From IMG/VR virus record IMGVR_UViG_2548876963_000010: a stretch of DNA of 35,198 nucleotides; one strand, 5' to 3'. A program made the translations under genes and the position numbers. Numbering within the stretch: position 1 is the first letter of the stretch; each line of letters opens with the position of its first letter. The DNA comes from a virus. Lineage: Duplodnaviria > Heunggongvirae > Uroviricota > Caudoviricetes. The notes under the pieces were generated by a model. It was given only the letters and a program-made list of their open reading frames with translations, searched no databases and was not told the DNA's origin. Positions 25,186 through 25,702 of this stretch are shown piece by piece.

Positions 25186-25506
25186 CTATGCCTCGTCGCT
25201 GTCGGTATTGATGATTTTCAGTTCAGCGGACTTCTGGAGCTGGATCAGCGCCGGAAGCAGAAGCGCGGTAGCCGACAGGCCATGCCCTAGCTGGCACAGG
25301 CTTTCAGCGGAGAATTCCAGCACGTTGCTGTCGGCAAAGGAGACGAAGGTTTTACCCAGAAAATGCAGGCCGTGACATAGTCCGGCGTAGCACTCTTCGC
25401 TGCTGTTGGCCAGTAGCAGAGTATCGTCGGCGTTCAGGTGTGAAATATCCATCTTGCGGATCGCGTCCGCCAGTTCAGAGGACAGAATATTGGTTTCAGG
25501 CACCAT
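25186..25506 (-). CDS. Hypothetical protein (106 aa)
   Basis: ORF with strong RBS GGAGGTG 5 nt upstream of ATG 25506; no family recognised. Confidence 0.5.
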   Translation of the reverse strand: MVPETNILSSELADAIRKMDISHLNADDTLLLANSSEECYAGLCHGLHFLGKTFVSFADSNVLEFSAESLCQLGHGLSATALLLPALIQLQKSAELKIINTDSDEA

Positions 25507-25702
25507 GGCGCACCTCCAGCGGTTTGCAGGAGACGAACACCAGCGGGAAACCCGCCAGCAGGTCGCGAGCCTCGATTTCAGTTGTTGCCAGTACAGACAC
25601 CAGACGCAGGGGCTGGATCTCGCGCAGCAGGCGGTTGGAACGGGCGTTCAGGAAGGTGTAGAGCTTTGAATGTGCGCGTATGTTACTATTAGCGGTAGCC
25701 AT
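25496..25702 (-). CDS. Hypothetical protein (68 aa)
   Basis: ORF with RBS AAAGAGG; 11-bp overlap with downstream 106-aa gene in a different frame. Confidence 0.45.
   Translation of the reverse strand: MATANSNIRAHSKLYTFLNARSNRLLREIQPLRLVSVLATTEIEARDLLAGFPLVFVSCKPLEVRHGA

Follow-up and report, generated by a model that had tools for sequence, protein, structure and literature searches.

The stretch of DNA analysed here (the window; 35,198 nucleotides, IMG/VR record IMGVR_UViG_2548876963_000010) is a P2-like prophage whose late genes lie on the minus strand; E. coli strains L725 (NZ_CP036202.1) and CEC15 (NZ_CP133657.1) carry this prophage. Between its genes L and X lie two small open reading frames (ORFs), A68 and B106, which overlap in different frames and are predicted to be the output of a regulated cassette that also contains a divergent ribbon-helix-helix (RHH) gene, RHH56, a sigma-70 promoter and an antisense RNA covering the A68 start (Table 1). 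The L-X distance was 2.14 kb in the window, whereas the L stop and the X start overlap in P2 (NC_001895.1) with nothing between them. This agrees with the first-pass annotation of the window, which had described both ORFs as absent from the canonical P2 L-X junction and whose coordinates for a 68-aa and a 106-aa ORF on the late strand, each with a ribosome-binding site (RBS), proved to be exact.

Two conserved overlapping genes

The overlap of A68 and B106 was 11 bp, at 25496-25506 (ATGGTGCCTGA). The Shine-Dalgarno (SD) sequence of A68, read from the sequence, was AGAGG (25715-25711), 8 nt 5' of the ATG, and that of B106 was GGAGG (25517-25513), 6 nt 5' of the ATG and within the 3' end of A68. 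In the database searches that the first-pass annotation had proposed, both ORFs matched PHROG families of unknown function along essentially their full length, A68 to phrog_20855 (1-68/68, E 1.5e-45) and B106 to phrog_19484 (1-105/106, E 3e-59). Homologues of both were found in Enterobacterales only in a search of 5.8 billion proteins, in the genera Salmonella, Escherichia, Yersinia, Photorhabdus, Kosakonia, Leminorella, Arsenophonus, Serratia and Klebsiella. Their lengths were constant across genera, 68 aa for A68 and 104-106 aa for B106, and the junction ATGnTGCCTGA, the 11-bp overlap and the SD inside A68 were kept in all two-ORF loci. No match to the annotated phage genome collection was obtained by megablast of the whole L-X insert or by tblastn of A68 and B106, and a sequence search of solved structures gave nothing below E 0.3.

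The ratio of nonsynonymous to synonymous substitution rates (dN/dS), calculated against diverged homologues with synonymous sites saturated or near-saturated, was 0.08-0.13 for A68 codons 13-60 and 0.07-0.35 for B106. Against the E. coli locus L002 (compared loci carry L numbers), the same A68 codons showed 20% synonymous differences and 0 amino-acid changes. The GC content of A68 and B106 was 0.56-0.60, like the phage backbone. Judged by this conservation, A68 and B106 are real genes under purifying selection, and the earlier suggestion of a small accessory pair was borne out. The other suggestion, that they are remnants of one frameshifted gene, would fit the overlap in different frames and the single ORFs of 113-116 aa seen in Pectobacterium and relatives, but it can hardly be credited, since the separate lengths are fixed, dN/dS was about 0.1 for both ORFs, no ~170-aa protein colinear with A68 and B106 was found in either protein search or in the profile search, and the single ORFs lack the body of A68, with leader codon ~13 joined to B106 codon 2. 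In these single ORFs, which occur in Pectobacterium, Brenneria, Erwinia, Serratia and Symbiopectobacterium, B106 from codon 2 onward is preceded by only ~13 codons from the start of the upstream ORF, and by their composition they are another arrangement of the B106 payload, not a fusion of A68 and B106.

Table 1. Positions of the features of the L-X junction in the window.
Feature	Position	Strand	Description
A68	25496-25702	-	68 aa, ATG start, from the ORF list
B106	25186-25506	-	106 aa, ATG start, from the ORF list
Predicted SymR-like cis-antisense RNA, ~80 nt	25697-25777	+	Rfam symR, fold, covariation, strand bias
Hairpin 1 of the predicted RNA	25698-25728	+	loop CCUCU complementary to the A68 SD; lies over the A68 start codon
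Hairpin 2 of the predicted RNA	25731-25765	+	GC-rich, followed by a U-rich tail; predicted terminator
Extended -10 box of the predicted antisense RNA promoter	25681-25689	+	TGtTACTAT, inside A68 codons 5-8
Predicted sigma-70 promoter of the A68-B106 transcript	25821-25850	-	TTGACA-18-TAGAAT, 11/12 matches, promoter scan
Two TGTAATTACAA palindromes	25803-25813, 25834-25844		at ~+1 and in the promoter spacer
RHH56	25844-26014	+	56-aa Arc/YlcI-YnfO-like RHH protein, divergent from A68-B106
Cargo gene	26116-26769	+	217-223 aa, phrog_28203 (unknown function), GC ~0.38, downstream of RHH56
Dyad, putative late-activator site	25137-25173	-	TTGTA-N11-TACAA core, between B106 and X
gpL	27211-27810	-	PF05926
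gpX	24868-25071	-	PF05489

The predicted antisense RNA over the A68 start

An Rfam search by E-value over the region 25000-26100 gave one meaningful match, at 25697-25768 on the plus strand, to symR (RF01809; 34.9 bits, E 1.3e-4). Two further loci gave independent sub-threshold symR matches in the equivalent position, L005 of Kosakonia (34.8 bits) and L096 of E. coli (32.3 bits). The predicted RNA spans the start codon and the RBS of A68, and the plus-strand fold of -39.2 kcal/mol (z -5.45) contained two hairpins.

Covariation, the strand tests and a covariance model (R1) were based on 36 distinct copies, and the consensus was obtained with RNAalifold. In hairpin 2, compensatory changes were present at five pairs, for example pair 37-69 (UA 15, AU 9, GU 7, CG 4) and pair 42-64 (GC 12, CG 12, UG 4, UA 4, GU 3). 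Canonical pairs filled 92.6% of cells on the antisense strand vs 74.9% on the sense strand, and G-U cells outnumbered A-C cells by 148 to 15. The mean minimum free energy was -35.8 kcal/mol for the antisense and -21.0 kcal/mol for the sense strand, the antisense strand being the more stable in all 36 copies, and the score of the U-rich tail was 6.7/12 on the antisense side vs 2.1/12 on the sense side.

The promoter element TG(T/A/G)TAC(T/C/A)AT was found in 40/40 distinct copies, 7 nt 5' of the predicted RNA start, even where the encoded peptide differs, and the 5' untranslated region (UTR) and first codons showed DNA-level conservation in essentially every locus, independently of the peptide encoded. 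The -10 hexamer lies at +14 to +19 of the ORF and the RNA start at +6, both as for symR relative to symE in E. coli K-12. The best non-self match of model R1 in 45 kb was the annotated K-12 symR (L057 4836-4921, 22 bits, E 7e-4). A plus-strand ORF of 45 aa over the RNA (25670-25807) was rejected as a coding explanation because the alignment contains 1-nt indels. We infer from these features that a SymR-like cis-antisense RNA overlaps the A68 start and is expressed. For C4 RNA (RF01695), neither the scan of the window at the gathering threshold nor the local E-value search gave a match.

Control region and ribbon-helix-helix gene

Downstream of the predicted sigma-70 promoter, the A68-B106 transcript would have a 5' UTR of ~110 nt. 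The two TGTAATTACAA palindromes (the sites also being given as TGTAATTACA) are presumed operators of RHH56, which matched the Arc-like repressor family phrog_228 (E 3.5e-6) and NCBIfam YlcI_YnfO_N (E 1.3e-3). In Pectobacterium islands (L020), the same promoter and palindromes accompany an RHH protein of 86% identity; where the RHH variant is another, the repeats at these positions are different as well. An RHH56-like divergent gene was present in 42 of the 56 loci with B106. No LexA box (CTG-N10-CAG), as found 5' of K-12 symE, was seen by inspection of 25703-25850, and the literature yielded nothing relevant on YlcI/YnfO or on the sequence of the antisense RNA.

RHH56 is the first gene of a low-GC cargo operon; the low-GC insert (~0.38, 25720-26850) carries RHH56 and the phrog_28203 gene. 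The first-pass annotation had set the two ORFs apart from this insert, and they do lie on the late strand as it stated, but in function they would be tied to the divergent RHH gene of the insert. Their own predicted sigma-70 promoter had not been recognised, nor had the predicted antisense RNA over the A68 start, the resemblance of A68 to Icd described below or the probable role of the dyad near X as a late-activator site.

GC content falls from ~0.58 to ~0.38 just upstream of the RNA terminator. RHH56 of the window was closest to the Pectobacterium version, whereas A68-B106 were closest to the versions in E. coli prophages. The different closest relatives together with the GC drop point to a mosaic cassette, with a recombination joint near the RNA terminator.

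Icd-like leader and orphan payload

A68 is net basic and was predicted to form a beta-beta-alpha-beta unit (AF2 model, mean predicted local distance difference test (pLDDT) 71.8), for which no informative structural neighbours were found. It scored 24.1 bits against NCBIfam NF033153 (host cell division inhibitor Icd-like protein; founder P1 Icd), with a cut-off of 25; this model was matched by 18 of 20 members of the A68 family at E <= 0.01 (best 4.5e-7), and several A68 homologues are named Icd-like by PGAP. In hhalign, the A68 family alignment A2 matched P1 Icd with a probability of 74% (E 2.8e-5, 43% identity over 23 columns), the aligned core being SVLATTEIEARDLLAGFPLVFVS in the A68 family and FVIAATEDEARSQLPDGPCIFTA in P1 Icd. 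On this core motif, A68 is classed as a distant Icd-like protein. A relationship with SymE was rejected (hhalign vs K-12 SymE, probability ~0.1% or less; no Pfam hit). According to one report (bioRxiv 10.1101/2023.04.06.535777), the effector of a prophage cell-death system is likely to be an Icd-like protein.

B106 was modelled with higher confidence (AF2 pLDDT 86.9) as a short helix followed by a long alpha-hairpin (helices 5-17, 26-59 and 67-105), and its structural matches were generic coiled-coil only. It is strongly acidic, with ~15 Asp/Glu vs 5 Lys/Arg counted from the sequence. Two histidines, His45 and His75, were invariant and lie within the related motifs GLCHGLHF and SLCQLGHGL. B106 had no match in Pfam, NCBIfam or PADLOC, and like A68 it was rejected as a SymE relative (hhalign vs K-12 SymE, probability ~0.1% or less). 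In a profile search of 1.84 billion representative proteins, the family comprised ~40 representative clusters, of which the convincing members were small and stand-alone; informative fusions were absent from the same set, the few long matches looking like coiled-coil noise.

The first ORF under the antisense RNA was variable. It was a 68-aa Icd-like ORF, a 40-aa ORF (Kosakonia, Phytobacter), one of several 42-58-aa variants, or the 13-codon leader of B106 itself. Genes other than B106 can also have an A68-type leader 5' of them, one example being the HigB-like gene of Photorhabdus. Because the first ORF varies while B106 is constant, A68 is regarded as an exchangeable leader and B106 as the constant payload of the cassette.

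Distribution and genomic setting of the cassette

The cassette lay within 400 nt of B106 (<=400 nt) in 52 of the 56 loci, and the other four were cut by contig ends. A68 was directly 5' of B106 in 33/56 loci; in the remaining 23, B106 occurred without the A68 body, with the 40-aa ORF, fused to the 13-codon leader, or alone. X adjoined B106 in only 4/56 loci. In Yersinia-type P2-like prophages, the module was located between V and W (L036) or between the tail-fibre genes and the sheath gene (L042), and in Pectobacterium-type islands directly after a tRNA gene and an integrase gene. The neighbours of the B106 module were almost always type II toxin-antitoxin genes, including MazEF inside the RHH operon (L010), VapBC (L036), HipBA (L042), TacAT (L005), CcdAB (L020) and a HigB-like gene behind a second cassette copy (L018).

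In three sister E. coli prophages (L001-L003), the place of the phrog_28203 gene is taken by RelE/ParE with a helix-turn-helix (HTH) gene or by Phd/Doc. With different cargo in the same slot, the L-X junction is interpreted as a cargo-exchange hotspot in this lineage. The 78-91-aa ORF adjoining L (26859-27134, minus strand) was retained in the sister prophages with 94-95% identity although their cargo is different; apart from a phrog_331 match, it gave weak winged-helix-like matches only.

In Photorhabdus (L018, L019, L023, L025, L032 and L056; ~3230-5300 in L018), two cassettes were arranged in tandem, each with an RHH gene and an antisense-RNA region. In the first copy, a Gp49/HigB-like toxin gene and a 112-aa ORF come after a leader truncated to 42 aa; the second copy has the 68-aa leader and B106. 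In L042, two C4 RNAs, an isrK RNA and a c4-a1b1 target element were found just downstream of B106 (5561-5646, 7375-7580), all above the Rfam gathering score.

Parts of the cassette were also encountered without B106. A segment identical in hairpin 1, SD and ATG was present in the viral IMG/VR contigs L063, L073, L077, L081, L082, L088, L091 and L093, where the operon order was a 41-51-aa ORF, a 72-135-aa ORF (phrog_35285) and a P4-alpha-like zinc-finger primase gene. In these contigs the divergent RHH-like gene is another one and the operators are repeated three times, e.g. GTGGCTGACA, and the region looks like a satellite early region. Their 135-aa second ORF was considered as a diverged B106, which was unsupported (hhalign probability 1.6%).

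In integrative elements of E. coli (L095 2194-3089, L096 2260-3585), hairpin 2 was the same and hairpin 1 different. Here a YlcI/YnfO gene is divergent from an Icd-like ORF, which overlaps an unrelated 106-aa ORF (hhalign probability 0.2% as a diverged B106, likewise unsupported) and is followed by DUF4222 and DUF927 or RepA helicase genes. In L096, isrK and C4 antisense RNAs occur in tandem within a row of Icd-like ORFs. From this layout, Icd-like ORFs seem to be generic antisense-gated leaders.

Comparison with known systems

The closest counterpart of the RNA was SymR of E. coli K-12, which blocks translation of SymE, a ~110-aa non-membrane toxin (review PMC4147584). In common with symE/SymR, the cassette would have a cis-antisense RNA (~77-80 nt) over a start codon and RBS with the same start (+6) and -10 box (+14 to +19), the same predicted fold of a 5' hairpin with an anti-SD loop and a GC-rich 3' hairpin, covariance-model matches that are reciprocal (RF01809 to the cassette, R1 to K-12 symR), and a regulated product of ~110 aa that is no hydrophobic peptide. 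It differs in that A68 and B106 are unrelated to the SymE toxin family, that a divergent RHH gene and palindromes stand in place of the LexA box, and that a leader ORF is interposed in most copies.

The leader and downstream gene recall the c4-icd-ant (immI) operon of P1 and P7. In the annotation of the P1 record, icd is required for ant expression and icd translation is repressed by C4 RNA; by analogy, A68 would be a small Icd-type ORF that overlaps the downstream gene and is controlled by an antisense RNA. The predicted cassette RNA, however, is cis-encoded and SymR-like, whereas C4 arises by processing of the same transcript. B106 shows no relationship to Ant, and the cassette lacks a C1-type operator.

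In immI of P22 (mnt/arc-ant, sar), an RHH repressor gene is divergent from the operon, and a cis-antisense RNA lies over the ribosome-binding site of the downstream gene. The cassette resembles this layout by analogy, but the only sequence tie was the weak Arc-like match of RHH56, and the payload is 106 aa vs ~300 aa for Ant.

Cargo hotspots have been described in P2-like prophages and in P4-like satellites (Rousset et al. 2022, PMC9122126), and the junction shares with them a variable slot beside exchangeable toxin-antitoxin or defence-type genes. The differences are that the slot here is L-X (V-W and G-FI in other lineages) and that the cassette is no described defence system (PADLOC). The published P2 hotspots are reportedly the old/tin and Z/fun positions.

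Proposed mechanism and function

The architecture, which combines an orphan payload with an RHH repressor, an Icd-type leader and an RNA of the SymR type, is well supported by comparison between loci. A68 and B106 are proposed to be the protein products of a cassette that is portable and tightly repressed. The sigma-70 promoter would start the A68-B106 transcript, and RHH56 probably represses it through the two TGTAATTACAA operators. The ~80-nt SymR-related RNA, starting at +6 of A68, would pair with the A68 SD and start codon and block A68 translation. Since the RBS and ATG of B106 lie within the end of A68, B106 would be made only when A68 is translated, by translational coupling following the logic of P1 icd-ant under C4 RNA. 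Double repression and the constant company of toxin-antitoxin genes suggest a module of the type I toxin-antitoxin-like or abortive-infection kind in which B106, perhaps with A68, is the effector that inhibits growth. We hold this view of the antisense-gated cassette between L and X, with B106 as its growth-inhibiting effector, with moderate confidence.

Several observations weigh against it. The antisense RNA is a sequence-based prediction whose symR scores, in the window as in L005 and L096, lie far below the RF01809 gathering score of 61, and at that threshold no match was obtained. Hairpin 1 is invariant and thus uninformative for covariation, and the U-tail of the window copy is interrupted (UUCGUUCGUUU). 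An RHH56-like gene was not detected in 14/56 loci, some of which have an unrelated divergent gene and others none (L036). B106, being acidic and all-helical, is unlike known type I toxins as well as unrelated to SymE, and proteins of this strongly acidic, all-helical kind act as inhibitors of other proteins more often than they act as toxins. Neither A68 nor B106 matched a PADLOC defence model.

The same control could also serve a switch of the immI type, in which B106 would be an acidic protein inhibitor, either an antirepressor or an anti-defence or DNA-mimic protein, kept silent in the lysogen. The excess of acidic residues and the long alpha-hairpin of B106, the Arc-like character of RHH56, and the Icd-like leader with its coupled downstream gene, which mirrors P1 icd-ant, are in line with such a switch, as is the position of the module beside the integrase in tRNA islands and at the head of the primase operon in satellite-type elements, both typical of regulatory switches. 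However, B106 showed no similarity to known antirepressors or anti-defence proteins in Pfam, NCBIfam, the structure searches or PADLOC, and most prophage copies are surrounded by toxin-antitoxin cargo and not by regulatory genes; we consider a switch of this type possible, though rather unlikely.

A type II-like toxin-antitoxin pair, with a basic A68 as division-inhibiting toxin and an acidic B106 as antitoxin or the reverse, was weighed as well. Two small overlapping ORFs of typical toxin-antitoxin size and opposite net charge, the first of them Icd-like and in a neighbourhood rich in toxin-antitoxin genes, would suit a pair of this kind. Their co-occurrence is not strict, however, as the 23 loci without the A68 body show, the A68-type leader also precedes other genes such as the HigB-like gene of Photorhabdus, and no toxin-antitoxin family in Pfam, NCBIfam or PADLOC matched A68 or B106, all of which makes a type II-like pair quite improbable.

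Hairpin 1 and its target (SD and start codon) were identical in P2-like prophages, tRNA islands and the satellite-type elements in which they head the primase operon. It is conceivable, if unlikely, that the RNA of a P2-like prophage, perhaps together with the RHH protein, silences in trans the early or replication operon of a satellite, resident or incoming, that has the same target, or the reverse. In such RNA-based cross-immunity between helper phage and satellite, the SymR-like RNA would be a diffusible immunity factor like the P4 CI or P1 C4 RNAs, beyond a local antitoxin.

Should the RNA be expressed, the antisense-gated cassette would represent a SymR-type antitoxin RNA untied from SymE and used as a portable translational gate before Icd-like leaders and unrelated payloads of prophages, genomic islands and satellite-like elements. 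The many small ORFs annotated there as 'Icd-like' or 'hypothetical' would then gain a role in relaying an antisense-RNA decision by translational coupling. The RHH gene, promoter, RNA and leader together could serve as a marker of toxin-antitoxin or defence cargo slots, and B106, a tiny orphan family under unusually tight control, would be a candidate new effector.

The dyad and late transcription of X

The dyad that the first-pass annotation had associated with X is real, with arms of 13 nt (25137-25149 and 25161-25173) that are 100% complementary. Its core TTGTA-N11-TACAA occurred exactly four times in the window (25137-25173, 15096-15116, 21434-21454 and 30344-30364), 5' of FI (sheath), V and X and between O and P, and the X and FI sites both have ctgtgccaccatc downstream at equal spacing. 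Ogr/Delta-dependent late promoters of P2 carry a partial dyad, TGT-N12-ACA, ~55 nt 5' of the transcription start of the late operon; the core in the window corresponds to TGT-N13-ACA, with spacing one base longer. From the four late sites and the ctgtgccaccatc element common to the X and sheath copies, the dyad is best read as an Ogr/Delta-type late-activator site that would restart late transcription after the insert.

This phage lineage appears to have an extra late promoter 5' of X, which P2 does not need because L and X adjoin there. The dyad is placed as the downstream boundary of the cassette, parting A68-B106 from the transcription unit of X, and according to the RNA fold its hairpin with 13-bp arms may also stop the A68-B106 transcript. 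An additional late-activator site of this kind would explain how a P2-like phage keeps late expression after cargo splits the O operon.

A68 and B106 share the strand of the late genes and their backbone-like GC content, as would be expected of accessory genes of the late operon (virion or lysis helpers) that were read from the O promoter with L and X. Such a role is highly improbable, since between L and the pair there are plus-strand genes in convergent orientation, A68 and B106 have a strong predicted sigma-70 promoter of their own, a dedicated putative late-activator site stands downstream of them and 5' of X, and the loci other than the four in which X adjoins are other prophage slots, tRNA islands and satellite-type elements.

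Other genes in the window

Downstream of X, the window contains holin, muramidase and spanin genes. A gene for a HicB-family antitoxin was found between V and the S/R tail genes (21495-21830, minus strand); the same slot holds HicA-HicB in one sister E. coli prophage and an Abi gene or a hypothetical gene in others. Immediately upstream of the sheath gene lies a D12-class N6-adenine DNA methyltransferase gene (15130-15888, minus strand), at the position of the Z/fun cargo slot of P2. Beyond gpD, on the plus strand (5126-8508), genes encoding an HTH protein (5126-5464), taken as the prophage repressor, a DUF6037 protein, an NA37 protein (37-kDa nucleoid-associated protein family) and a 421-aa protein without a Pfam hit were observed, and the left end of the window (1-4483) encodes an 884-aa Toprim protein and an integrase.

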